A stretch of DNA of 20,000 nucleotides from an uncultured Methanosarcinales archaeon (GCA_964455675.1 CAYVYK010000002.1:185440-205439); one strand, 5' to 3'. Counted from the first letter of the stretch, positions 2 through 20,000 are shown. Notes: a model not told the origin generated them from the sequence alone. Made by a program: numbers and translations.

Positions 2-2560
2 GTTGGGTGTGTGGACTGCGAAGGGAACGTCCTGCATAAAGTATACGAGCCAACTAAGCCGGTGAGGAGGGCGCTCATTCTCGTCCATGGATGGGGTGTC
101 TCATCGCGAAGGTTCACGCAACTGATCGATGAGATGAGAGTTACGGATCAGCCTTGGCAGATCTGGACGTTTGATTATCCAAAGGACCAGAATATTGACG
201 TGACAGTTACTGAGTTCATGAACGCTGTCGAATCCGCGAGCGGCGAGTTTGATGATGTGGTTATCGTCGCCCATAGTCTTGGAGGTATTGTTGCTCAGCA
301 GTCGGTCACGAGCGCATATAATGCCGCAAAATCTCAGGAGAGGGTGTATGGATTCCTTCCGAAAGTGAGGAAGATGATCCTCGTTGCGGTGCCAAATGAT
401 GGGCTCATCCGAAGCGACATGTACCAACTGTTAAAGGCAAAATCTTCACAATTGCCTCTTGTGGAGGACTTCTTCGACATTCCGTACATGATTCTTGAGG
501 AGCTGAAGGATGGAAGGGTTACGCCGCGAGTTCCCGGCATCGACTATTATGTTGTTGCGGGCACGAGGGATTACTTCTTCACGAAAAGCCTTGGAGTGAA
601 CGTGAAGAACGATGGGCTTGTTTCCGTCAGGAGTGCGCAGCATATCGGTGATGATTACGTAGAGGATCGCTGTGTGAACTATTATGAACTCGACGTGAGC
701 CACACCGATCTTCTTGATAATGTGGAGTCCGTGCGCATCATTGCCCGTCTTGCGGCAAAAGACTTGCTCGAGACACAGAACAGCGCTCTCCTCGGGTATA
801 ACCAAATCGTGAACATTGACATTCCCGAATGCGATCCATCAGGGTATTACTGGGTTGTGGGCAAGATTGTGGATGCTGACGAAACGGACGATCCATGTAA
901 TTGCGGAAACAAGATCTGTGGTGCTGGAGAAGATGAGATGACATGCCCCGAGGATTGTGCAGCGTTCCATTCAAATGAGGAAGCATGTTTCCTCCTGAAG
1001 GGAATGAAGGTATCCACATGGGCGATGCTTGCAGTTCTCATTCTCATCGTGCTCGCAAGTATTGCGGTCTTCCGTATTGATTCTAAGAATGCGCTTGTCC
1101 TCCTGACGTTCATGGTGTTTGCGGCAGCGACTGCGATGACGGTCATTGAGTTTTTCAACTGCGTATACCCGATAAATATGACGAATCCATTCCTGAAGAT
1201 CCTGCAGGGCCTTGGCCTCATCCTCGAATTTGTCGTCGCTGCGGGAATATTCTTCCTGTATCGTTTCCAAATAATGTTAAAGGAGCGCCACGTTTTCGTC
1301 AAAGCTCTTGGCATTCTGTCATCATCCATCGTGATCGTACTCCTGACATTCCTATTCGCTCCCTGGAATGAATGGCTCGCGGGCTTTGTTATATTCTATG
1401 GCCTTGTTCTGCTTCACGTGTGTATTTTCCATCATGTGAAGGATCTTGCTCCCGATGAGGTGAGCCGAAGGCGTATCCGTGACTTGCATCACATTGGTGA
1501 GCGCGTCCATGAGATTTGGAAGTCCGCCGTAAGGTCCTTTTGTTCGTCGGATATCAAGGCGGTCAAAGACTCGTTTGCCGCAATACTCACGGTGCACAAT
1601 TCTCTCAAAGCCATGGATGATGAGGCGGTGAAGATACTGAGTGCTGTCCATAAACCTCTGGAGAGTATTATCGCTTTTGCCGCGAGGGCCATTGAGATCC
1701 GGATGATGCTGGCTGGCGTGTCAGGTGATAAGAAGAAAGCTATTAAAGAGATCCTTGATGCTTATGAGCGCCTGCTTGATGATCCTCCAAGTGATGCGCT
1801 GACGATTGCGCGGTATGGAAGGATTGACCGCCTTCGCGCGAAAGAAGCCTCCGCAAAAGTGCTCCTTGCTCGTGCCAGGTCCCTCTATGCGTCAGGTGAC
1901 ATGGATGAGTGTGAGAAGCTTTGCGGCAAATTATCCTCCGCCGTCGATGAAATCGTCGAGGAATCATTCCTTGCGATCGAACTGTTCCATGATGCCCTTA
2001 TTGCCCAGTCGATCCGTGCCTGGAGCTATCATGGTATTGGTGCTCTTCCAGAAAGGAAGCGTCGCATGCTTCATGAGCGCGCCATGCACGCTCGTGATCT
2101 TCTTATGCGAGCGAGGAGGGCGTATTTCAAGCACGATTTACTCTCTGCCTTCGACTTGTACAAGCAGCTAGAAGTGATGTATGATTCGCTTCTGTATGAT
2201 GATAAGAAGGATGTGTATGGAGAGATGGTGTTCCTGTATAACGATCTTGATGTGGCAAGACACCAGCTCACGGAGAACTTCGCCCGCAAGAATGAAGCGA
2301 GTTCCCATCACAAGCAGTATTTGATGCACCGATGGCTGCGCCTTGCTTCATGGCGTCAGAAACAGGGCATCGTGAATTCGGAATCAGTGCAGCAGCTCAT
2401 GCGTGTCGGGGATAAGATTGCGGATATCAGGTCTCGCCCGCGTCAGGAGGCCCACGATCTGTACAAGGAAGCCATCGGACTGTATTCCAAACTGCCCGAT
2501 GAATTGAAAGCAATATGTTATCGGGATCTTATGAGATCCTACCATATGTTGTCAAGGTGA
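2..2560 (+). CDS. Membrane-anchored alpha/beta-hydrolase (lipase/esterase, PGAP1-like) with Cys-rich motif, about 5 TM helices and helical C-terminal repeats; 5'-partial
   Basis: Frame is open from base 2 (VGC precedes the GTG at 11), so the true start is probably upstream of the window. Motifs: LILVHGW (oxyanion), AHSLGG nucleophile elbow (269-286), NDGLV and SHTDL as candidate Asp/His, CGNKIC...CPEDC (896-958), several hydrophobic segments at about 1015-1430. Confidence 0.85.
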   Translation, partial: VGCVDCEGNVLHKVYEPTKPVRRALILVHGWGVSSRRFTQLIDEMRVTDQPWQIWTFDYPKDQNIDVTVTEFMNAVESASGEFDDVVIVAHSLGGIVAQQSVTSAYNAAKSQERVYGFLPKVRKMILVAVPNDGLIRSDMYQLLKAKSSQLPLVEDFFDIPYMILEELKDGRVTPRVPGIDYYVVAGTRDYFFTKSLGVNVKNDGLVSVRSAQHIGDDYVEDRCVNYYELDVSHTDLLDNVESVRIIARLAAKDLLETQNSALLGYNQIVNIDIPECDPSGYYWVVGKIVDADETDDPCNCGNKICGAGEDEMTCPEDCAAFHSNEEACFLLKGMKVSTWAMLAVLILIVLASIAVFRIDSKNALVLLTFMVFAAATAMTVIEFFNCVYPINMTNPFLKILQGLGLILEFVVAAGIFFLYRFQIMLKERHVFVKALGILSSSIVIVLLTFLFAPWNEWLAGFVIFYGLVLLHVCIFHHVKDLAPDEVSRRRIRDLHHIGERVHEIWKSAVRSFCSSDIKAVKDSFAAILTVHNSLKAMDDEAVKILSAVHKPLESIIAFAARAIEIRMMLAGVSGDKKKAIKEILDAYERLLDDPPSDALTIARYGRIDRLRAKEASAKVLLARARSLYASGDMDECEKLCGKLSSAVDEIVEESFLAIELFHDALIAQSIRAWSYHGIGALPERKRRMLHERAMHARDLLMRARRAYFKHDLLSAFDLYKQLEVMYDSLLYDDKKDVYGEMVFLYNDLDVARHQLTENFARKNEASSHHKQYLMHRWLRLASWRQKQGIVNSESVQQLMRVGDKIADIRSRPRQEAHDLYKEAIGLYSKLPDELKAICYRDLMRSYHMLSR

Positions 2561-2565
2561 TGATG

Positions 2566-3114
2566 ATGGCACGGAAAAAAGCGAAAAAAAGTGATGATGA
2601 TCTCCTGAATTTGCCAAAGGACGAGGGCGTGGCGATGCGCGCATCGATATGGAGAAGGATCGCGGCAGTGATCATTGATCTGTTTCTTGTCTATGGGCTA
2701 GGTTCTGCAGTGTTATCGCTCCTCCCGATTACAAAGCAGATTCAAAGTGATATTCCAAAGAATGCGACTTTTCTGCAGCTTCAGGACCATTTTCTGAGCA
2801 ATCCTGATCTCGTCCAGTGGTCGACGGCAATGACAATCCTCTTCTCCGCGCTCTTCCTGCTCTATTTTTCCATCGCAGAGTTCAAGTTTGGTCAGACTGT
2901 GGGAAAGAACATTCTGAATATCAGGATCGAAGCGATTGCAGGAAAGCTCTCGCTTGGAAAGTGTATGGTGCGAAGCTTGTGGAGCGTTGTCTTCGTTCCG
3001 GTCTATCTCTTATGGATCATCGACATCATGTATATGTTCTTTAACAAGGACCAGCAGAGGCTCCTTGAGAAATTGAGCAAAACAAGGACCATCCAGAAGG
3101 TGCGTATCACATGA
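2566..3114 (+). CDS. RDD family membrane protein
   Basis: ASIWRRIAAVIIDL (R, D), GQTVGK..L.I.I, R-SL and QRLLEKLSKT (second D replaced by E). Start chosen at ATG 2566 after SD-like AGGTGA at 2555-2560; ATGs at 2560 and 2563 are alternatives. Confidence 0.9.
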   Translation: MARKKAKKSDDDLLNLPKDEGVAMRASIWRRIAAVIIDLFLVYGLGSAVLSLLPITKQIQSDIPKNATFLQLQDHFLSNPDLVQWSTAMTILFSALFLLYFSIAEFKFGQTVGKNILNIRIEAIAGKLSLGKCMVRSLWSVVFVPVYLLWIIDIMYMFFNKDQQRLLEKLSKTRTIQKVRIT

Positions 3115-6100
3115 AAAAGCTCTCCATCGCAGTGCTGCTCGCAGTGCTTGTAGCCAGCGTTGCGATCTATTCAGAGAGCAATGGTACAAACGAGTCGGGG
3201 AACTGGAGTAACAGCTCTTTTGGATTACCAAACATCGAACCTACCGAACTGCCCGATGTTATCATCACTCCGAGGGCTATCCTCACACCAGAACCTGATA
3301 TTCCTCCGACAAGTGTGGAAGTTGAGGAGATTGCCGCGTTATCTGAAGAGGACGAATATGTGCAAGTGACGATCTGGCTTGATGAGTCCGATCGCGCGCT
3401 GAATTCACCAACAGAGATTCAACAGGCGACGGAAAATGTGCTGTCCGCGATGGATGCTCGCGCGCTTGTTGATCTGAAGAACGCGATTCTGACAGAGAAT
3501 GAAGAGGGAATGATGCTTTCCGCTACCTCCCTGCCTGATTTTGTTGTGACAAATTCGTATTCTCACTTGCCAGCGGTCTCCGGCCTCATCCGGGCGTCGA
3601 TGCTTGACGAGATTGGAAACCTTCCTGGCGTTGATAGCGTGATGCCCTCGGAGAGAGTGTATGCGAGCCTCGTTCAAAGTAATCCTATGATAAACGCGAC
3701 GCTCGCGAATATGATAGAGGTCGGAACGACGAACATTACGGGCGCTCAAGTTGCCGTGTGCGTTCTTGACACGGGTGTCCGCTCGGATCACGCGTACCTT
3801 GGCGGGAGGGTGATCGCTGAGAAGTGTTATCTCACGAGCAGCGAATGCCCGAATGATCTGACGGAGGATGATGACGCAACCGATGATCACGGGCACGGTA
3901 CGCATGTGGCTGGGATCATCGCATCGGAATCTACGACCTATAAGGGTGTTGCTCCTGCTGTGAATATTGTTGCAGTGAAGGTCTTGAACTCTGCTGGTAG
4001 TGGAATTGGCTCTGATGTCATATCAGGTATTGATTACTGCATTGCCCAGAAGAATGTGTATAACATCACCGCAATCGTGATGAGTCTTGGTAGTGCTCAC
4101 ATGTTTGCGACGGAAGCCGAATGCGATCCAAATTCTGCCACTGCTCGTGCGGCAAATGATGCGCACGTTGCGGGCATCTTTGTTGTGGCTGCTGCAGGTA
4201 ATTATGGTAACGCAAGCGGAGTTTCCCCTCCTGCGTGCGGTACGAATGTGACAGCAGTTGGGGCAGTGTATGATTTTACGGCCACATCGATCATAACATA
4301 TACCCTGGCATCCTGCACGGATGATGCAGAGACAAAGGGTAATGTGACATGTTTTTCAAATAGCGCTCCAGCCCTTGACCTCCTCGCGCCTGGCGCGAAC
4401 ATCACTAGTTCTTGGTACACGAGTACATCTGCCATCGGGCGTGTTGCGGGAACGTCGCAGGCAGCGCCGCATGTTGCTGCCGCGGGTGCTCTTCTAGCCC
4501 AGTATGGTAGGCTCTACAGTGGTCGCAACCTCACGCCTAGTGAGATCAAGCAGGCGCTGATTGATGGCGGTGTTGACTATACCGATCCGAGAAACAGCAT
4601 TGAGACCCCGATCCTGAATGTCTATCAAGCAATGCAGATGATTAATGATGGCGTCGCTGTCAATGTGACATACCCAATTACGACGGGTAATAGGCTAGTC
4701 ACAAACCATTCCTGGACAATTGTGAATGTAAGCACGTCAGATCGCGCATCAGAGGTTGTCCTGCAGGTATGGTCTAATCCAAATAATGTAAGAAACATGA
4801 CCATGCGGAAACTGAATGACACGAGGTTTACGATTAACATTTCTCGCAATGCGACGAATTATTCAAGGCTCGGCCTTGAGCGTCTCTCCCTGAACATATC
4901 AAAGGGCTGGGACACGAACGATTACGTTGTGGATTATATCAACGCGACAGCGATCAGCACGAACGCTCTTGGCATCGTGAATCACTCCTCAAGCTTCCGG
5001 ATATACCTTGAGAACAGGAACTTCACGAACCTCTCATACCTTCCAGCGGGCAACACATCCACGGATGAAGGGTTGAATGTCACATTCAATGTCACGTTTT
5101 ATGATTATCACGCCATGAATACTACGCTGCTCCTGATTGTCGACGGTGACATTGTATCTCGCTTTGGGCATGATTCATATCAAGGAGGCGTTCATGTACA
5201 GAATGTAACACTAGGCAACTGGAGCGAGATGTGCTCTCTGAATTTCAGCGTCCCAAGGATTAACCGCACGTATGACATGTTCAACGCTACGTGGAATAAC
5301 GCGACGGTGAATGTTGCGGGATATGGTAATTACACGTTCTACCGCAATAGTGAGATCCAGTTTATGGGCTGCCAGGTACGCGTGCAGAACTTCTCGAACG
5401 TGTCAGGTGTGCACAAAGTTGAGTTTTGGTATCGCGAGGGCGCGTTCAGCACCGAGGCTAATTTCAGCGATAATAGCGCAAATTATCATAATGTTTCTGT
5501 AAATTATACCGATGGAGAATATTCATTCCTCATCAATTGGACGGTCCTTGTGAATGAGAGCAATGATATCCCTGATGTGAGTAATGTGAATATCACGAGC
5601 GGCACAAGGGGAAATTATTCAAATGGGTCCATCCGCTGCAATTTTTCATTCATTGACAATGATTATGATAGCACAACGCCAATGAATGAGACACGGTGGT
5701 ATAAGAATAACGTGAGCCAGGCGTGGACGAACGTGAGCACGATTCTTGCGGGAAATCTTTCAAAGTATGATGTCTGGATCTGCTCGGTGCGGGTGCATGA
5801 TGATTATGACTGGAGTAATTTCACGAACGGTTCGATCACGATAAGGAATGCGCCTCCAACAAGGGAACTGATCGACGACTATTTCATGCCGAGGGGTACG
5901 AACCGGACGAATGTGATTAACCTTTCCGAGTACTTCACGGATATTGACAACGCGACGCTGAACTTCAGCGCAAGGACAAACACGTCAATCAACAATTTCA
6001 CGGTGATCTTGCGGGGCGCGAATGTCTCATTCAATACGAGTCACAGGTTTGCGGGCAGCGTCCGAGTGACGTTTAATGCATCTGATGAGTCGTCGTGGGT

Positions 6101-7232
6101 TACCGATGTCATTATTGTTAAAGCGTATTACTGCGGTGATGACGAGTGCGACCCAGCCGAGAGCTCCTCGAATTGCGAGGAGGACTGCGGCTCGAGTGAT
6201 GATGACAGTTCTGGCGGTGATGATGACGATGGGGGAGGCGGCCTTCCTGGTGGAACGACGACGCCTTCGCTTGCTTCAGAGGTTGTCCAGATTGCGTCCA
6301 TTGCCGCTGGTGCAACAGGGAATTTCCGGTTTGTCTCAACGAGCCTCCCAATCACGAATATCCAGGTACGCGTAAAGACTGCTGTGGAGGAACCAAAGAT
6401 AACAGTAAAACAGGTTGATCCAGCATCGCTTGGAACAATGATGCTCTCAACACTTGCGGGAGGAACGTATCAGTATCTCGACATGTCCGCGGTGAAGCTG
6501 ACGTCAACAAACATTGACACGGTCACGATCGATTTCAAGATCCCGCGCTCCTGGTTCCAGGGTTACATCGAGAATTCTCTTGTGATGAAGCGATACGTGA
6601 ACAGTCAGTGGGTTGACCTTCCGACGACGAAGGTTGCGACAGAGTCAACGTGGGCCCACTACCGTGCGACATCCCCGGGATTCTCGATTTTCGCGCTCTA
6701 TGCGCAAAAGCCTGAAATTATGCTGACGGCATCCCCATCGCAAAATCTGACATTGAACGCCACGCAGAATCTCACAAATCAGTCCACCCCAACGCCTACT
6801 CCGACAGAAACGCCGCCAGCGGATGCGACGCAAAGCAGGGGGAGCGGAATTGTGGGAAAGGTCATTGCTCTTATTCTCGTGCTATGTGCAGTAGGTCTTG
6901 GTGTATTTATCTATCTCCATAAGAGGAAAAAGCCTATTGGACAGAAAAAGGAAGAAACCCCTGAGCGTTCTGAGATCATGAGCACAGTCTCGGAATTCGT
7001 GAAGGAAAGAAAGCAGAAGAGGGAGATAGTTAAGGAGGAGAAAAAGCACCAAGAAATAGTCTCCTCAGTTGCGGAGCCTGCTGACACGTCGTTCGAGAAT
7101 CTTCCAGAGGTGCTGAGATTCGTCGCCAAAATGCGCAGCAATGGAGAGTCCGATACAGTAATTCGAAAGAAACTGATTGATGCAGGTTGGCCTGAGAAAC
7201 TGGTGACGAGGGCATTATCAAAGCAGAAGTAA
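3111..7232 (+). CDS. Secreted, C-terminally membrane-anchored S8 subtilisin-like serine protease with Asn-rich stalk and PGF-pre-PGF domain
   Basis: Signal peptide MKKLSIAVLLAVLVASVA, propeptide, catalytic VLDTG, HGTHVAG and GTSQAAP, oxyanion AAGN. Later YRATSPGFSIFA (PGF-pre-PGF type), a Thr/Pro linker, one TM helix and a basic tail. ATGA overlap with the RDD stop. Confidence 0.95.
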   Translation: MKKLSIAVLLAVLVASVAIYSESNGTNESGNWSNSSFGLPNIEPTELPDVIITPRAILTPEPDIPPTSVEVEEIAALSEEDEYVQVTIWLDESDRALNSPTEIQQATENVLSAMDARALVDLKNAILTENEEGMMLSATSLPDFVVTNSYSHLPAVSGLIRASMLDEIGNLPGVDSVMPSERVYASLVQSNPMINATLANMIEVGTTNITGAQVAVCVLDTGVRSDHAYLGGRVIAEKCYLTSSECPNDLTEDDDATDDHGHGTHVAGIIASESTTYKGVAPAVNIVAVKVLNSAGSGIGSDVISGIDYCIAQKNVYNITAIVMSLGSAHMFATEAECDPNSATARAANDAHVAGIFVVAAAGNYGNASGVSPPACGTNVTAVGAVYDFTATSIITYTLASCTDDAETKGNVTCFSNSAPALDLLAPGANITSSWYTSTSAIGRVAGTSQAAPHVAAAGALLAQYGRLYSGRNLTPSEIKQALIDGGVDYTDPRNSIETPILNVYQAMQMINDGVAVNVTYPITTGNRLVTNHSWTIVNVSTSDRASEVVLQVWSNPNNVRNMTMRKLNDTRFTINISRNATNYSRLGLERLSLNISKGWDTNDYVVDYINATAISTNALGIVNHSSSFRIYLENRNFTNLSYLPAGNTSTDEGLNVTFNVTFYDYHAMNTTLLLIVDGDIVSRFGHDSYQGGVHVQNVTLGNWSEMCSLNFSVPRINRTYDMFNATWNNATVNVAGYGNYTFYRNSEIQFMGCQVRVQNFSNVSGVHKVEFWYREGAFSTEANFSDNSANYHNVSVNYTDGEYSFLINWTVLVNESNDIPDVSNVNITSGTRGNYSNGSIRCNFSFIDNDYDSTTPMNETRWYKNNVSQAWTNVSTILAGNLSKYDVWICSVRVHDDYDWSNFTNGSITIRNAPPTRELIDDYFMPRGTNRTNVINLSEYFTDIDNATLNFSARTNTSINNFTVILRGANVSFNTSHRFAGSVRVTFNASDESSWVTDVIIVKAYYCGDDECDPAESSSNCEEDCGSSDDDSSGGDDDDGGGGLPGGTTTPSLASEVVQIASIAAGATGNFRFVSTSLPITNIQVRVKTAVEEPKITVKQVDPASLGTMMLSTLAGGTYQYLDMSAVKLTSTNIDTVTIDFKIPRSWFQGYIENSLVMKRYVNSQWVDLPTTKVATESTWAHYRATSPGFSIFALYAQKPEIMLTASPSQNLTLNATQNLTNQSTPTPTPTETPPADATQSRGSGIVGKVIALILVLCAVGLGVFIYLHKRKKPIGQKKEETPERSEIMSTVSEFVKERKQKREIVKEEKKHQEIVSSVAEPADTSFENLPEVLRFVAKMRSNGESDTVIRKKLIDAGWPEKLVTRALSKQK

Positions 7233-7250
7233 TCGATTTTCCCCGTCAGT

Positions 7251-7258
7251 TTTATATA
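7251..7258 (+). promoter_or_regulatory. TATA box for the PolB-like gene (leaderless)
   Basis: TTTATATA lies 23 nt upstream of ATG 7282. Confidence 0.65.
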
Positions 7259-7281
7259 TTTTTACTACTCACCAGGTATAT

Positions 7282-9567
7282 ATGGAGAGGATGCAGGTCA
7301 GGGTTCAGGATATTGGCACGCTGTGGGTAGAAAATCAAGTGATGATTGTTCTGTATGCAAAGACGAGCGCTAATCGCAGGATTTGCCTCATCGATCGTTT
7401 TGAACCATACTTCTTTGTTTTTCCTCGTGTTGGGGCTGACGTTATCCCGCGTCTTGAGTCTGTTCGTGTCGCGCTCCCGCAGGGCAAGTTTGGGAGAGTG
7501 ACGCATATCGAGAGCGAAGTGCTTGTCCGCGACGGAGAGGAAATCCCATGCCTCAAAGTCTCAGTGAATATTCCCGAGGCGAGTGTTGAGATCGCAAAGC
7601 TTGCTCGGGAATGGGAAGAAATTGAAGGATTGAGTTATCATGATGTTGGTTTTCTCGCATTGTATGCGTTTGAGCGGCAGATCGTCCCGTTCACGATTTA
7701 CGACGCTGAGATGGAAGCATCCGGAACGCACAAGGGATTGCCGATGTATAACCTTGTGTCCATCAAGCCAACTATTGATGTCGTAACCGAGAATAAAGTG
7801 TCCTCCATGTATTTCAGCGCAGAATTTCTTGAGCCATTCATGGGGAGGCTGAGCGAGGATCGCCCGCTTGTGGCATACACGATCATCGATCCTGAGCGCA
7901 CGAAGACAAGGACATGGAAGCTGTTTCGCCAGGATACGCAGAAGATGCCGTTCCGTGTGGACTTTGTCCGTAGCGAGATTGAATTAATCGAGGCGCTCAA
8001 GCGCGATCTTGAATCGGTAAACATGGATGTCATGTGGGGATTCTATTCTGATTTCTTCGAGATTCCCTGGATACTGAGGCGTTGTAGGCATTACCGTATG
8101 ACGCTCAATGTAGAATGGGATGGATCTCCGCTTCGGGAACCACGGAGCAGAAAAAGAATGCCGAAGTGGAACGGCCTCGTGCACATTGATATTTTCAGGA
8201 CTCTTCGAAAGCTTCTTGGATCCACCTCACCTGAGGACATGACGGTTGGTTCTGCTTCGCTCCTCGATGTGAGCCGGGATGCGGAAGGGCTGAAGTATTG
8301 CATGAAGAGCTTTGAGGGCTGTTCATCGATTGAAAAGTACGCAAAGACTCTCTGGCCATTGTATGAGGAGTTGCTGCATCTGACATCACTCCCGCTCTTC
8401 TACGTCAGCCGCATGACGAGAAATCAGGTCATGGAAGCGTTCATGACCAAGCGGGCGGTTGAAAAGCGGCAGTCCCTTCCAGCAAGGCCCATGAAGGGCG
8501 AGCTTGGGTATCGCGTGTCCCACTCCTATCCGCAGGCCCCAGTTCGTGAGGCAATTCCCGCGTTACATTCTGATGTGATCGTTCTTGATTATCGCCAGTT
8601 GTATGCGTATTTGATTCGTACGCATAATCTGTCGCATGAGACATTCTGCTGCTCCTGCTGCCGCGAGAAGAGCATCTCGCTTGGTGATGAGGAAGTGTGG
8701 ATGTGTGCCCGCCGTCAGGGTTTCCTTGCAGATGTCGTTGCGGATTTGGAAGCAAGAGGCGAGAAATCTAGACTTCGTCATATTCTGCTTGCAGGTATGC
8801 TTGAGTATCTGAAGTATCCGAAATCACGCTGGTTCTCTCCAGCTCTCAGCAATGTTCTCGAAAAGCTCGCACGCCGCGACCTTGAGCCTGTGCTAGGAAA
8901 GATTGAAGAGCTTGGCGCAAAGATCCTTTTTGTGAATCACCAGTATGTATTTCTCTCGTCCAAGGATGCAGACCAGTTGGTGCGAGGTATCACTGAGTTG
9001 TCAATCCCGTTTCCGATCGTTGTACGTGGAACCTACACCCGAGCGCTCTTTGCTCCAAGCCGCACGGGTAAAGGCAGCAGGAAATACGCGCTTCTGAGTG
9101 CATCTGGAGATCTTGAATTGATGGGTTTTGAGATCACCCATCAGAATTATTGTGAGTTTGCACGGAGGATTCAGAAGGAAGTTATTACAAGAATCCTCAA
9201 GACCGGCGATCCTGCTCTTGCATTTTCGTATGTGGAAGCGCAGATCGTCAAGCTGAGATCCCGGCAAGTCCTGTTCGAGTCACTTATCATCCGCAACCGG
9301 CTCGCGAAGGATCCGCAAAAATATGAGGTCAAGCTTCCGCACGTTCGTGTTGCTGAGTCGCTGCAAAGCCAGGGGTATGATCTGCCCCCAGGATCGACTG
9401 TTCCCTACGTTATTCGCGAGGGTCCTGGAAAGTTGAGCGATCGTGCCGTGTACTCGAGGGACGCGACGCTGGCAGATATTGATACTGAGTATTACATTGC
9501 TGGTCAAGTGCTCCCGCTCATCAATCCGCTCTTTCAGTTGTTCGGAAAAGAAGTACGTGAGGGTTAG
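7282..9567 (+). CDS. Family B DNA polymerase homolog, predicted catalytically inactive
   Basis: PolB layout: N-terminal FEPYF, exonuclease-like region (SEIELI, GFYSDFFEIPWI, HIDIF), LDYRQLY (motif A), HNLSHET, RKYAL, MGFE, YEVKLPHV and IDTEYYIAGQ. Exo I/II/III and pol motifs B and C are substituted. Confidence 0.9.
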   Translation: MERMQVRVQDIGTLWVENQVMIVLYAKTSANRRICLIDRFEPYFFVFPRVGADVIPRLESVRVALPQGKFGRVTHIESEVLVRDGEEIPCLKVSVNIPEASVEIAKLAREWEEIEGLSYHDVGFLALYAFERQIVPFTIYDAEMEASGTHKGLPMYNLVSIKPTIDVVTENKVSSMYFSAEFLEPFMGRLSEDRPLVAYTIIDPERTKTRTWKLFRQDTQKMPFRVDFVRSEIELIEALKRDLESVNMDVMWGFYSDFFEIPWILRRCRHYRMTLNVEWDGSPLREPRSRKRMPKWNGLVHIDIFRTLRKLLGSTSPEDMTVGSASLLDVSRDAEGLKYCMKSFEGCSSIEKYAKTLWPLYEELLHLTSLPLFYVSRMTRNQVMEAFMTKRAVEKRQSLPARPMKGELGYRVSHSYPQAPVREAIPALHSDVIVLDYRQLYAYLIRTHNLSHETFCCSCCREKSISLGDEEVWMCARRQGFLADVVADLEARGEKSRLRHILLAGMLEYLKYPKSRWFSPALSNVLEKLARRDLEPVLGKIEELGAKILFVNHQYVFLSSKDADQLVRGITELSIPFPIVVRGTYTRALFAPSRTGKGSRKYALLSASGDLELMGFEITHQNYCEFARRIQKEVITRILKTGDPALAFSYVEAQIVKLRSRQVLFESLIIRNRLAKDPQKYEVKLPHVRVAESLQSQGYDLPPGSTVPYVIREGPGKLSDRAVYSRDATLADIDTEYYIAGQVLPLINPLFQLFGKEVREG

Positions 9568-10000: not shown

Positions 10001-10008
10001 TATTTAAA
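10001..10008 (-). promoter_or_regulatory. TATA box for the membrane protein gene
   Basis: TTTAAATA on the minus strand, 22 nt before ATG 9978. Confidence 0.6.
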
Positions 10009-10482: not shown

Positions 10483-10557
10483 TATTTAAATGTTCCTGCT
10501 TCTCGGTTACGCGGCACACGTGTAAAAATTTAAGGCGGAGAGAATTACTTTTAAATA
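10483..10557. promoter_or_regulatory. Divergent TATA boxes for aIF-1A (-) and ROK (+)
   Basis: TTTAAATA on the minus strand at 10483-10490 (22 nt to ATG 10460) and on the plus strand at 10550-10557 (23 nt to ATG 10581). Confidence 0.65.
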
Positions 10558-15859: not shown

Positions 15860-16021
15860 TTACATCTGGCCAGTATCTGCGTACTTCTTCATGAGTCGCT
15901 CAACGACGATCTGCGGCGCGTATCCTGATCTGCTGCATGCTTTCACAAAAAGGTCGTACGTTGGCCTGTCAACTGCGTAATCAAGTCGTATCTTTGGAGG
16001 ATCTTTTGGTCGTGCTGCCAT
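15860..16021 (-). CDS. 53-aa ribbon-helix-helix-like small protein (below the ORF-track cutoff)
   Basis: Translated by hand: MAARPKDPPKIRLDYAVDRPTYDLFVKACSRSGYAPQIVVERLMKKYADTGQM*. SD-like AGGTGA lies just upstream and TTTATATA is at 16056-16063 on the minus strand. Confidence 0.8.
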   Translation of the reverse strand: MAARPKDPPKIRLDYAVDRPTYDLFVKACSRSGYAPQIVVERLMKKYADTGQM

Positions 16022-16114: not shown

Positions 16115-16185
16115 GCGCCAATAGTTGAACGGCACAATGGGACCTTGCCAAGGTCTTGGTCCGGGTTCGATTCCCGGTTGGCGCA
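16115..16185 (+). tRNA. tRNA-Gly (GCC), intronless, CCA not encoded
   Basis: Acceptor GCGCCAA/TTGGCGC plus discriminator A; D arm GTTG/CAAT; anticodon arm GGACC-TTGCCAA-GGTCT; T arm CCGGG-TTCGATT-CCCGG. TATA TTTAAAAA at 16081-16088. Confidence 0.97.
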
Positions 16186-16252: not shown

Positions 16253-16265
16253 CCCGGTTGGCGCA
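16253..16265 (+). repeat. 13-bp direct repeat of the tRNA-Gly 3' end (att-like)
   Basis: CCCGGTTGGCGCA occurs at 16173-16185 and again at 16253-16265. Confidence 0.85.
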
Positions 16266-16399: not shown

Positions 16400-19300
16400 C
16401 TACGTTCTAATCTGCTGTTGGATGTCATATATTAACCGCGACATAGCTTGTTTGTCGGGTATTTTTCCCTCATTGATGTACAAGAGCTGTACATCGTCGA
16501 AGAGAGCATACGTCTGCAAGTCACTTAGTCCGCGCTCATGCCAAGAACTAGTAGATATGACATGTGCGATTCTTTGCCGATGATTATATGGGAAGTGCTG
16601 ATTGTTCAGGATCTCCTCGGCAAAAAGTTCGGCTCTCAGAAGCGCGTTTGAGGAGGCATGCTTCACACGTGATCCGTTAGTAAGATCTTTTTTGGAGAAG
16701 ATATGCTCATGTGGAGTGTCACCATTACCATTGGTGAGACTCCTTGCTGTTGGTGTTATCACATCTGCTGCCTGCAGTTGACTGTTGTCTTGCCTCTCCA
16801 TGGGATCTGATTTTCTTGCTCTGTATCCATCACAGATACTCTTGTACAGTTCATCATCCCTCCTTACGTATCCGACGATTGCTTCGATGTTTTTTGGTAT
16901 TTCATCCAGAACTCGCGTAATATTTTCGGGTGTCCCGTCATCACCTCTTCTTGCACACCTAATACGGTCAATCATGATCTGAGCGTCGGGTGCATGGGCT
17001 AGGTAAGCATACGCCATATCCCTATCAATAGCTGCCAGTGCTCTAGTTCGCCGTATTTTGTTCCTGAATAGCTGCACTGCAACCTGGAGGGAGTACAACC
17101 GTGCAACAACAATGTCATTTCGAAACGGCCCGCGATGCGACGGATTATGTCGAATAATCTGTTCACAGATTTTTACATAATCAATTGTTTTTTGTTTGGC
17201 TAGGTCTAAGATTGATTCTAGCGATCTTCTACACTGTTCAATGCAATCCATTTGCCAATCCATATTGTGGTCAGCTACATACTCACTTGTTGCGATTAAT
17301 CGGTATCCCAGGTGGTAGTCATCTGCTGCCATACCCCTTATGCGACCTATGGCATCTCCCGCCCTCCGAAGCCTTTTCAGGATATCTACAGGACCACGAA
17401 GGGTAATCTTATCCTCCGATAGAATCTCATCCTCATCTGCGAGTTTCTGGAGTTTATCCCTATCAAAATTATTTAGAATGTGTGACAGTCGGGGATTGTC
17501 AATGAGGGCATCAATCTCCTTCTTATGCTCAGGATCAATCTCTTGGAGTGTCAGATACTTCTGGCGGTCTCTTACATGGGGACGGTAAAGCGCAAGCATC
17601 TGTACACGTAGTGGTTTATCATCAGCGACTTCAACAACACAAGGGCTTGTCTTCACCCACTTTTGTAGCTCATGTATTTGTGCGCGGAGAATATTCTTCC
17701 TCAGAACAGGATCATCATACCGAGTGTGAGACTCAGTGTTATAAACCATCGAATGCGCATGCTTGAATTCACGGATGCTTAACCACCTCACCGGGAGGGT
17801 ATCTTGCAGTGCGGAGTCCTGTGTAACTGCCGCTTCCATAATCTTGTCGAGCATACGGTGGTCACGAGCCTCCCGCACCCACAAAGAAACAGAGAATAAA
17901 TTCGCGGTCAATTGCCGAGTATCATGAGTCTTTGCGTATTCTCTAAACGCCCCTTTATTGACAAAGATGTTATTCCAAGTTTTTCCCTTGAAGGTGGAAT
18001 AAGCCGGTAGGTCATCGGGAGTTTGGATGGTGACTCCTGCACCTGCCAAACGGTTAATAGAACGAACCGCCGGACAGTCTCTGCTCCAGAGGATGTAAAC
18101 CAATGGTCTTCCCGATCTTACATAGTCAGCTAATTGGGTTCTGTCTCTATCCCCAAAAATGTTTCCCGATTTCACTTCGATGATCTGCTCTAAGTTTCTC
18201 TGTCCATAATCTACGATCCTCACCGACTCGTTTCCTTTTAGAATAATCTGGTGTTCTATACTTGGATTCTGGAGCGCAAGCAGAATTCCCACATACTGCT
18301 CAAAGGCTAGACCAAAATTAAAGAAAGTGGGTGTATCATTTCTAACAATCTTACCCGGATTAACTTGCTTCCGTAGCTCCTTATACTGCTTTGTCAGAGC
18401 AATCAGCTCTTCGTCACGATCTGCCCACTTGTGGGCACCGCCGAGCAATGACTTGAAGAATATCCCTCGTTCCGGACTGGTCGTTCCTTTTCCTCTGAGT
18501 AAGTTTTCCAGTCCACGAAGTTTGGTGTACCCAAGTACTCCATTGCAGTCTTCTGATCTAAGGCTTTCTGCAGTCGTTGCCCCAGACCATTTTCTTAATA
18601 ATTCACGCTGCAAATCCCGGTTCCCCTGAATTTTTCTGGAAAGAATTCGCAAGAAGGGTGAATATTGATACGAACCAGGGTAAACAGAATGCCCTGTGAC
18701 GTCTAAATCATGAATTAATACTTCACGCGGTGTTTGTTGTACGTATCTGACCGAGAAATTTTGTATATACTCCCTTCGGGCTCTTGAGATAATAGGAACT
18801 CGGTTTTGTCGTGCAAGATTCCTGAAATAGGTAATATCTCCGTTCAGTTTGTGTTTACCCCCGGTGATAATTGTCGCGATGCTACGATGGTGAGAATGCA
18901 ACAGCGCACTAGCCTTTCCGATCTCGTCCCGAGATGTAATACCAGTTATTTTTGAAAACACCTCCCATTGAAGTCGTGGATCTGATGATATTCGGGCTGA
19001 TACAGCGCTAAGGTAACTATACTCGTAACAGATGTTTACATCTACCCTTGGTAGGAGCGCCCGTAGCTGATCTGCACTCATTCTCCGTACATTGTCAGCA
19101 GTCAGTTGTTCTAGACTCTCCTGGTGTAGTTTCGTGAGCGCAGGAAGACCCAGTGATTTCGCGACGTCCCGTAGTGTATCTGCATACGCTCTATAACCCG
19201 ACGGTTTGTTAGTGAAGAGTACCTCAAGTCTCTTCCAACCTCCTCGACTTGATGTACTCTCCTTGGTGATCTCTTCCAACGCGGTAAATCCAGTTGCAAC

Positions 19301-19501
19301 TAAAAATAGGGTTCGTTCAATACCCAAGCGCTTAATCATATGTCGTTGACGTCCATACCTCAGGGTAATTGATTTAGGGAGTTCTTCACGTATCTCCTTG
19401 GGGGTTCTATGTTTAGCATACTCCTGAATCGCCAGTTCAATTTCCTCCCGAGGAGTCCCTGATGGAAAAGATGACAGAATATGAAATAGTCCGCCTTCCA
19501 T
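16400..19501 (-). CDS. 1033-aa hypothetical protein: three N-terminal tandem repeats, central PD-(D/E)XK nuclease, helical C-terminal region
   Basis: Long ORF with its own TATA box. Candidate nuclease residues GLAFE401, RIVD431, IIE442VK444 and Q456LADY460. Confidence 0.8.
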   Translation of the reverse strand: MEGGLFHILSSFPSGTPREEIELAIQEYAKHRTPKEIREELPKSITLRYGRQRHMIKRLGIERTLFLVATGFTALEEITKESTSSRGGWKRLEVLFTNKPSGYRAYADTLRDVAKSLGLPALTKLHQESLEQLTADNVRRMSADQLRALLPRVDVNICYEYSYLSAVSARISSDPRLQWEVFSKITGITSRDEIGKASALLHSHHRSIATIITGGKHKLNGDITYFRNLARQNRVPIISRARREYIQNFSVRYVQQTPREVLIHDLDVTGHSVYPGSYQYSPFLRILSRKIQGNRDLQRELLRKWSGATTAESLRSEDCNGVLGYTKLRGLENLLRGKGTTSPERGIFFKSLLGGAHKWADRDEELIALTKQYKELRKQVNPGKIVRNDTPTFFNFGLAFEQYVGILLALQNPSIEHQIILKGNESVRIVDYGQRNLEQIIEVKSGNIFGDRDRTQLADYVRSGRPLVYILWSRDCPAVRSINRLAGAGVTIQTPDDLPAYSTFKGKTWNNIFVNKGAFREYAKTHDTRQLTANLFSVSLWVREARDHRMLDKIMEAAVTQDSALQDTLPVRWLSIREFKHAHSMVYNTESHTRYDDPVLRKNILRAQIHELQKWVKTSPCVVEVADDKPLRVQMLALYRPHVRDRQKYLTLQEIDPEHKKEIDALIDNPRLSHILNNFDRDKLQKLADEDEILSEDKITLRGPVDILKRLRRAGDAIGRIRGMAADDYHLGYRLIATSEYVADHNMDWQMDCIEQCRRSLESILDLAKQKTIDYVKICEQIIRHNPSHRGPFRNDIVVARLYSLQVAVQLFRNKIRRTRALAAIDRDMAYAYLAHAPDAQIMIDRIRCARRGDDGTPENITRVLDEIPKNIEAIVGYVRRDDELYKSICDGYRARKSDPMERQDNSQLQAADVITPTARSLTNGNGDTPHEHIFSKKDLTNGSRVKHASSNALLRAELFAEEILNNQHFPYNHRQRIAHVISTSSWHERGLSDLQTYALFDDVQLLYINEGKIPDKQAMSRLIYDIQQQIRT

Positions 19502-19718: not shown

Positions 19719-20000
19719 TTAAATTATTCTGTCCGAGAGCGCCTCATGATCTAGCTTACTCTTGCGTTTATGGCAGTCTTTGCAGAGCGTCCGCAGATTT
19801 GCTTTTTCAAGGAGAGTTCCGCCCATCTGCACGGGAATGATATGGTCAACGTCAAGCTGTGATTTTCGCAGTCTTTGCTTGCATATGCTGCATCGGTAGT
19901 GGTCCCGTCGCAGTACGTCCTTTCTGACGAAATACCAGGAGTTTTCCCGGTTAAAGTGGTCCATGCATGCTTTTGAGCAGTAATGCCGTCGTCCGCTAGC
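19719..20000 (-). CDS. HNH endonuclease with N-terminal Zn-finger half-motif; 5'-partial
   Basis: RD.YRCSIC...LDVDHIIP...GG.....NLRTLCKDCH..K. The frame stays open to the window edge, adding ASGRRHYCSKAC before the Met at 19964. Confidence 0.92.
   Translation of the reverse strand, partial: ASGRRHYCSKACMDHFNRENSWYFVRKDVLRRDHYRCSICKQRLRKSQLDVDHIIPVQMGGTLLEKANLRTLCKDCHKRKSKLDHEALSDRII

Follow-up and report, generated by a model that had tools for sequence, protein, structure and literature searches.

The 20,000-nucleotide (nt) stretch analysed here (the window; CAYVYK010000002.1:185440-205439 of assembly GCA_964455675.1) is the final 20 kb of contig C2 of an archaeal genome of 1.72 Mb that is 99% complete. 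Its minus strand carries a gene for a protein of 1033 amino acids (aa), hereafter P0001, which adjoins a tRNA-Gly(GCC) gene (16115-16185) on one side and a small HNH endonuclease gene on the other. An original prediction, made from the DNA sequence by itself, had described P0001 as an orphan protein with a central PD-(D/E)XK nuclease and had proposed it as a defence or conflict effector. Our analysis shows that the gene is real and intact and has a host-type promoter, and it points to a predicted nuclease domain embedded in a three-module protein that, by its sequence, is a natural hybrid of two unnamed groups.

The open reading frame (ORF) lies exactly where it had been placed, on the minus strand and free of internal stops. 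The frame extends upstream of the ATG by 7 codons only (1040 aa maximum), so the start is well defined. Contigs of two DNA sequencing runs from one study cover the gene with few differences; the loose ends at 16175/16185 come from single contigs and fall where the conserved tRNA stops, and they were given no weight. The TATA box that had been called host-type is just that: the octamer TTTAAATA lies 22 nt before the ATG, the spacing seen at its other three copies in the window. Four copies compare with 0.3 expected by chance, and all of them sit 22-23 nt before start codons (ORF starts 9978, 10460, 10581 and 19501), which gives the gene the host's promoter layout. This placement also suggests that leaderless transcripts are the rule here, providing a simple promoter rule for annotating the genome. 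The features of the gene and its protein are as follows.

16400-19501, minus strand: complete gene for the 1033-aa protein P0001
19524-19531, minus strand: TATA box TTTAAATA, in a leaderless-type promoter layout
10001-10008 (minus), 10483-10490 (minus) and 10550-10557 (plus): other copies of TTTAAATA, upstream of ORF starts
19214-19501, minus strand: N-terminal head, aa 1-96, including a partial repeat at aa 27-96; common to about 14 relatives, with domain E-values down to 1e-11
18848-19174, minus strand: repeat unit 1, aa 110-218, of a helical repeat of about 125 aa (jackhmmer and unit alignment)
18446-18832, minus strand: repeat unit 2, aa 224-352, which matches five places in the relative P0002 (E 3e-4 to 3e-33)
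17651-18424, minus strand: nuclease domain, aa 360-617, comprising a coiled-coil linker, a PD-(D/E)XK core and a helical subdomain; common to 15 proteins
18089-18322, minus strand: predicted catalytic alpha-beta-beta-beta-alpha-beta core, aa 394-471, with E401, E416, D431, E442, K444 and Q456
16403-17644, minus strand: C-terminal helical module (the tail), aa 620-1033, about 400 aa, of no known family; found in 12 relatives

The central nuclease domain

The nuclease motifs are GLAFEQYV (aa 397-404, containing E401), RIVD (428-431), IIEVKSG (440-446, containing E442 and K444) and QLADY (456-460), which together occupy 18122-18301 of the window, and the six residues singled out in the original prediction (E401, D431, E442, K444, Q456 and Y460) all fall at the numbers given for them. 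Their conservation was read from an alignment of homologues to the nuclease domain with the query columns kept (A2), which has 16 rows and is clean over the domain; two rows, P0003 and P0017, are almost identical, leaving about 14 independent ones. With homologues only 22-34% identical to the query, E401 is kept in all 15 rows that cover it, E416 and D431 in 14 of 15 each, and an acidic residue at 442, K444 and Q456 in 16 of 16. Position 460, by contrast, is F, I, Y, V, H or L. The E...D...ExK...QxxxY arrangement that had been proposed is therefore conserved at E401, D431, E442, K444 and Q456 but not at its final tyrosine.

An AlphaFold2 (AF2) model of aa 355-625, built with the 16-row alignment, reached a predicted local distance difference test (pLDDT) score of 85.7 and a predicted template modelling (pTM) score of 0.81. 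It contains a helix at 394-411, strands at 416-422, 427-433 and 440-444, a second helix at 451-463 and a further strand at 467-471, which is the core order of the PD-(D/E)XK superfamily (helix, three antiparallel strands, helix, strand). The conserved residues fall where that superfamily has them, with E401 on the first helix, the acidic D431 on strand 2, the (D/E)xK residues E442 and K444 on strand 3, and Q456 on the second helix. The restriction-endonuclease core is thus predicted with confidence and its catalytic residues are conserved, in agreement with the central nuclease originally proposed. A full-length AF2 prediction made without an alignment was useless (mean pLDDT 35.9), and homodimer prediction for the nuclease domain scored 0.00 in two runs without controls, which is evidence neither for nor against a dimer.

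Structural comparisons of the model lead to the same fold. A Foldseek-independent search covering 48,161 chains, with matches spanning model residues of about 34-155, gave Z-scores of 6.9 for AF1548 (1y88), 6.4 for BstEII, 5.5 for both Cdn1 and Can2, 5.4 for SfsA, 5.2 for PspGI, 5.1 for EcoT38I, 5.0 for NucS and 4.9 for each of BamHI, BsaWI, Bax1 and BglII. VC1899, TseT, FokI, LlaBIII and AspBHI also appear in that list, and its remaining rows are long-helix alignments of 50-60 residues. In a second structural look about 36 of 50 rows were restriction-fold nucleases, judged by the titles or the known nature of the entries, and the matches listed from a viral structure library include Endonuclease I, PD-(D/E)XK, Vsr and DUF559 proteins. 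No individual match is significant; taken together, the lists consist largely of PD-(D/E)XK nucleases. Because the lists are one-sided in this way and the motifs are conserved, we regard the assignment of a restriction-endonuclease fold to the predicted model as sound.

The domain is probably an active nuclease, which would cleave phosphodiester bonds in a metal-dependent manner, with DNA as the expected substrate. Activity has been lost in many restriction-fold domains, and the long helical modules and repeats of P0001 would suit a structural or DNA-binding scaffold built around a nuclease fold that is retained but inactive. All canonical catalytic positions are kept, however, across homologues as divergent as those aligned here, and we consider such a scaffold very improbable.

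Three modules and their relatives

P0001 matches no characterised family over its full length or in any part. Pfam (E ≤ 0.01), NCBIfam and PHROGs gave zero families anywhere in the protein, and searches of the Protein Data Bank (PDB) yielded only RPN5 at E 0.32 with the protein sequence, only a primase at E 6 with the nuclease profile A2, and nothing below E 0.05 with the repeat profile A4. Pfam at the permissive threshold of E ≤ 1, applied to 11 members of the tail alignment A3, found nothing for the tail. Word-indexed homologue searches with the whole protein and with aa 620-1033 returned the query alone among 8000 scored candidates each, and an ESM Atlas structure search with aa 1-355 and 620-1033 gave no usable match. 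The flanks of the nuclease had been described as lacking recognisable motifs, and no known family was indeed matched there by Pfam, PADLOC, NCBIfam, PHROGs or PDB sequence searches. A limited literature search found the family nowhere in print, from which we make no claim that it is undescribed, and found no publication linking NucS to Woesearchaeota.

The label of orphan holds only in part. HMMER searches of 1.84 billion representative proteins retrieved 42 others at E ≤ 0.001, each sharing one of the three modules of P0001, and two further homologue copies were found in related genomes. The source labels are Nanoarchaeota, Woesearchaeota and Pacearchaeota, and every named homologue is a 'hypothetical protein'; all are thus unnamed, and the full architecture, which the original prediction did not recognise, is unique to P0001 among the resulting 43 proteins. 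Segment-wise searches separate the modules by their relatives, with 19 for the repeats, 15 for the nuclease and 12 for the tail.

The N-terminal repeats that had been claimed are real, with units of about 125 aa at 27-96 (partial), 110-218 and 224-352. Across the 19 relatives the helical repeat occurs in 1-5 copies. The two full units of P0001 are only 18% identical to each other and are therefore old, not freshly amplified. Members of the nuclease group carry very different N-terminal arrays, in which the type of repeat varies as well. P0046 (L021:7170-9122) has four repeats of about 70 aa with the pattern 'GYWPN..ENIERE', P0003 (L009:9144-11258) has repeats of about 70 aa with 'W..EYNNHP', and P0002 (L008:8977-13992) has five of the 125-aa units followed by a second array of repeats of about 140 aa.

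The tail is duplicated in 2 of its 12 relatives, and 6 of the 12 carry an N-terminal NucS_C domain (28-35 bits against a cut-off of 24). The tail profile A3 matches NucS/EndoMS in the PDB (2vld, E 5.7e-8; EndoMS, 1.6e-5) only through this N-terminal domain of the relatives. Conserved positions of the tail are mostly aromatic or aliphatic (Y, F, P and L), suggesting a structural or binding role rather than catalysis. Proteins with the nuclease module and proteins with the tail module form disjoint sets except for P0001, which by this sequence evidence is a natural hybrid that fuses, at about 618-627, the front part of one unnamed group to the back part of a second. A restriction-fold nuclease directly precedes the tail in either group. 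The two nuclease domains have no detectable sequence relation, as hhalign of a 15-row core alignment against six NucS_C-bearing N-termini paired only 26 columns around ExK..Q without significance (P 0.23). The recurrence of the same tail after two PD-(D/E)XK domains with no detectable sequence relation is the best clue that the tail works with the nuclease.

Genomic setting and proposed role

The DNA of the gene had been judged more AT-rich than the core genes, and computation bears this out to a modest degree. Its GC content is 45.5% and its GC content at third codon positions (GC3) 42.6%, against ORF means of 49.8% (s.d. 3.4) and 54.8% (s.d. 6.8), which places it at the 7th and 2.5th percentiles of 1101 ORFs. 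The gene and the HNH gene share a low-GC trough of about 4 kb (about 16.4-20.5 kb); similar troughs exist elsewhere. The HNH gene itself runs off the contig:

19719-20000, minus strand, continuing on the end of contig C6 (G000:C6; L026 about 17900-18000): HNH endonuclease gene, directly upstream of the P0001 gene on the same strand and cut off by the contig end

The last 26 bases of C2 are the reverse complement of the end of C6, and across this overlap the HNH frame closes to a 121-aa protein with a start codon, which makes the C2-C6 join likely. In PADLOC the HNH protein matches only the generic HNH parts of DpdF, PtuB and ZorE.

Relatives are rare. In single-sequence searches whose counts each include this genome, 4 of 401 genomes drawn from the order, spanning 258 genera, had the nuclease domain. 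In samples taken across the phylum, the domain turned up in 3 of 401 high-quality genomes and the tail in 2 of 401; scans of public contigs with alignment A5 added only three genome loci and two metagenome loci. The group is very rare, Nanoarchaeota-restricted and patchy across families. An accessory gene is suggested by its rarity and patchy occurrence, its low GC3, the adjacent HNH gene and the exchange of modules, and would be a rare, lineage-restricted one of Woesearchaeota-type archaea. Conflict systems commonly have such traits, which are indirect hints at a conflict role.

We propose that P0001 is a cytoplasmic, metal-dependent PD-(D/E)XK endonuclease, acting most likely on DNA and built from three exchangeable modules. 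E401, D431 and E442-x-K444, helped by Q456, would form the classical metal-binding and water-activating site. The N-terminal array of helical repeats, variable in number and type, would be the targeting or partner-binding part, and the C-terminal helical module would regulate or position the nuclease. Its most likely role would be in genome conflict, as a solitary, methylase-independent restriction-like or sensor nuclease. For the statement as a whole, that P0001 is an active DNA nuclease, accessory and conflict-related, we see the case as evenly balanced. No methyltransferase is encoded among the 17 window ORFs scanned with Pfam, as had been noted, nor among 11 ORFs on the continuing contig, and homologue neighbours include no DNA methyltransferase either, so the adjacent cognate enzyme of a restriction-modification system is lacking.

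The tRNA-Gly gene bears on whether the P0001 gene was brought in by integration. It ends in the 13-mer CCCGGTTGGCGCA (16173-16185), which recurs exactly at 16253-16265, 67 nt after the tRNA, the copies being 80 nt apart. The original prediction took this for a repeat like an integrase attachment (att) site, and P0001 as cargo of a mobile element integrated at tRNA-Gly would also accord with the low-GC stretch holding the gene and the HNH endonuclease gene and with the break of the assembly at the tRNA end in both sequencing runs. However, the two copies are on one and the same side of the gene, that of the tRNA, and no third copy exists in the genome or across the contig join, so the repeat cannot bound an island holding the gene. 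Repeats of the same kind are also common in this genome: for 13 of its 27 tRNA genes, the gene's own 3′ end recurs as an exact 11-18-nt copy 37-106 nt downstream (examples at C2:6851-6936, C20:10800-10885 and C4:56685-56761), and for 6 of 27 the gene's own 5′ end recurs 64-152 nt upstream, against 0 of 27 in each of two control directions. The repeat is therefore a general tRNA-flank feature of the organism and not an integration scar. At tRNA-Gly the trailer folds into a strong hairpin that contains the copy (-52.3 kcal/mol, z -3.55). Neither the window nor the 10 kb that follow across the contig join yielded an integrase or transposase, and searches of phage and plasmid collections (tblastn) and of public viral contigs (0 loci with alignment A5) recovered no relatives. 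The bracketing repeats and the integrase expected of a tRNA-integrated genomic island are thus lacking, the repeat falls away as a sign of integration, and we hold the cargo explanation to be distinctly unlikely. The tRNA-end copies may instead be leader and trailer processing elements or a decoy structure peculiar to the lineage.

Several results weigh against the proposed conflict nuclease. In addition to the missing distal repeat copy, the missing integrase and transposase, and the empty phage, plasmid and viral searches, the codon-usage distance of the gene is unremarkable (57th percentile among 220 long ORFs), no metagenome contig skips the gene and sequencing depth over it is not reduced. 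Neither sequence nor profile searches link P0001 to any named nuclease family. With Foldseek, neither the PDB nor the viral library gave a match at E ≤ 0.001, and all VIA-align Z-scores are at most 6.9, below 8, a range that the tool describes as common between unrelated folds. The roles given to the N-terminal array and the tail are guesses. As a defence candidate the protein fared no better: PADLOC-DB 2.0, a library that dates from 2023 and holds few archaeal systems, matched zero families to P0001 at E ≤ 1 and zero to its nuclease domain and five relatives (including P0002, P0003, P0046 and P0047) at E ≤ 0.01, and two NucS_C-type relatives had weak hits only, through their NucS_C part.

The surroundings of the homologues likewise count against a conflict role and do not bear out the defence idea, as they consist of unrelated housekeeping genes in neighbourhoods that are not conserved:

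G035 homologue: SepF, ZPR1, PHP and TctA
G009 homologue: NDK, EF-2, GDPD and Mur ligase
L021 homologue: ThyX, Tmk, an aminotransferase and Lgt
L022 homologue: an Na/H exchanger
G511 NucS_C-type relative: MetRS and ribosomal proteins L3 and L4, with an RNA methyltransferase three genes away

This setting invites another explanation, in which P0001 serves the DNA metabolism of the cell itself as a repair or recombination nuclease, functionally analogous to NucS/EndoMS or to a junction resolvase, with repeats and a tail that bind replication or repair partners. Homologues of both groups sit among housekeeping genes, and the tail is otherwise fused to domains of the type of NucS/EndoMS, a repair enzyme; these two observations keep a repair role alive. 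The host-type promoter is in keeping with it, as is a window that encodes the family-B DNA polymerase PolB and a DEAD-box helicase besides ribosomal proteins S19e and L31e and eIF-1A (Pfam). Yet a core repair factor should be widespread, whereas single-sequence searches found the nuclease domain in only 3-4 and the tail in 2 of 401 related genomes. The gene's GC3 is also far below the ORF mean, repeat number and type vary among homologues, and P0001 neither matches the NucS_C model nor has the NucS N-terminal domain. We therefore judge a repair role unlikely.

The structural neighbours raise a further alternative, a toxin-like nuclease, either a toxin-immunity or abortive-infection killer or an RNA- or tRNA-cutting enzyme, with RNA or, once it is triggered, the nucleic acids of its own cell as the target. 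Contact-dependent and type VI toxins with this fold, namely CdiA-CT structures (4g6v, 4g6u and 4zqu; Z 3.3-4.0) and TseT (7dym; Z 4.9), are among those neighbours, as are the signal-activated Can2, Card1 and Cdn1, and module shuffling is typical of toxin-like nuclease proteins. Ordinary restriction enzymes score at least as well, however, and Pfam detects no CARF or other known sensor domain. The nuclease of P0001 is central (aa 394-471 of 1033) rather than C-terminal, its N-terminus, read by eye, shows no signal peptide or membrane segment, and there is no candidate immunity gene, with only the tRNA downstream and neighbours that are not conserved. P0001 thus shows neither the export signal nor the C-terminal toxin nor the adjacent immunity gene of a polymorphic toxin, and we find this alternative quite unlikely.

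A more specific form of the conflict nuclease can be imagined, in which P0001 belongs to a kit of single-chain immune or conflict nucleases. A shared 400-aa module for control or sensing would accept a restriction-fold nuclease from either of two unrelated families, one group would be steered by swappable arrays of large helical repeats that read the target (DNA or an invader protein), and P0001 would be the natural hybrid demonstrating that the parts can be exchanged. Taken jointly, these propositions are speculative and, in our estimation, rather unlikely to hold.

Other genes near P0001 and its relatives were also recorded. The only recurring neighbour is an ORF of about 330 aa directly upstream of nuclease-group genes at L021:6214-7182 (plus strand) and L022:6200-7213 (plus strand); the two copies are 28% identical (E 3e-34) and have no Pfam or PADLOC match. 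G035 and G009 have relatives of this ORF on other contigs, and the query used found none in this genome; the ORF may now and then act as a partner of the nuclease-group gene. Within the window, a 53-aa ORF at 15860-16021 (minus strand), just upstream of tRNA-Gly on the opposite strand, has no PADLOC match, and the genes at 11-9567 (plus strand), which encode an 849-aa alpha/beta-hydrolase-like protein, an RDD-family protein, a 1373-aa subtilase (Peptidase_S8) and the family-B DNA polymerase, look ordinary. Beyond the C2-C6 join lie a 203-aa protein of no known function and then a radical-SAM/B12 cluster (L026, G000:C6, 11383-16817), which would lie about 1-6 kb past the HNH gene if the join is right. 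It encodes a B12-binding radical SAM protein, an HD phosphohydrolase, two radical-SAM-SPASM proteins and a nucleotidyl transferase, which may form a pathway that modifies nucleotides or sugars. The same contig encodes an 840-aa protein (L026, 6542-9064, plus strand) with a Hint/intein-type module at residues of about 500-650.

Comparison with known nucleases

The catalytic fold of P0001 is among the most familiar. The novelty lies in a nuclease family that has no model in the libraries searched, two flanking modules of no known family and their hybrid arrangement. In the uncultured DPANN archaea, the majority of larger proteins are without an assigned function; P0001, one of these, gains a testable biochemical assignment, that of a predicted metal-dependent nuclease with four named catalytic residues. 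The tail, found after two restriction-fold domains with no detectable sequence relation, offers a handle on its own function, and if it is true that the repeat arrays set target specificity, the group could attract interest as a modular nuclease. P0001 is not established as a defence system by this evidence, and the tRNA repeat that hinted at mobility is general among the tRNA genes of this genome.

Can2, Card1 and Cdn1, from type III CRISPR and related systems, share the nuclease fold with the P0001 model (Z 4.1-5.5) and the idea of a sensor that controls a nuclease. P0001 differs in that Pfam detects no CARF or nucleotide-sensing domain in it, and a Pfam scan finds no CRISPR genes in the window; the likeness is at the level of the fold only.

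The mismatch endonuclease NucS/EndoMS (PF01939; 2vld and 5gke) resembles the central domain of P0001 as an archaeal PD-(D/E)XK nuclease with D on strand 2, ExK on strand 3 and Q on the next helix, and 2vld aligns structurally over 91-92 residues (Z 5.0). In contrast to NucS, P0001 has no match to the NucS_C model in Pfam (E ≤ 0.01) or NCBIfam and no NucS N-terminal domain, and NucS has neither the repeats nor the tail.

AF1548 of Archaeoglobus fulgidus (1y88), likewise archaeal, is the best match in all three PDB structure searches. It aligns over 146 residues with a root-mean-square deviation of 4.6 (Z 6.9; model 42-221 on chain 3-167; Foldseek E 0.019), and the alignment extends past the core into the helical part. 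According to the passage on it in PMC1821046, AF1548 is predicted to be a restriction endonuclease with residues D38, E51 and K53; it is known from that prediction and shares the D...ExK core with P0001. The two proteins differ in that AF1548 is a stand-alone protein of 184 aa, whereas P0001 is a three-module protein of 1033 aa, and they are 12% identical with no match at the sequence level.

Single-chain restriction enzymes with a separate recognition part provide a parallel in overall logic. The model shares its catalytic fold with FokI (Z 4.8), the modification-dependent type IV enzymes AspBHI (4.7) and MspJI (4.3), and the Type ISP enzyme LlaBIII (4.7). Sequence relation to these enzymes is absent, and their recognition and motor domains were not detected in P0001 by Pfam, NCBIfam or PADLOC; the nuclease of P0001 sits in the middle of the chain and not at an end. 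Like them, P0001, which has no methyltransferase gene nearby, joins a predicted nuclease and large additional modules in one chain.

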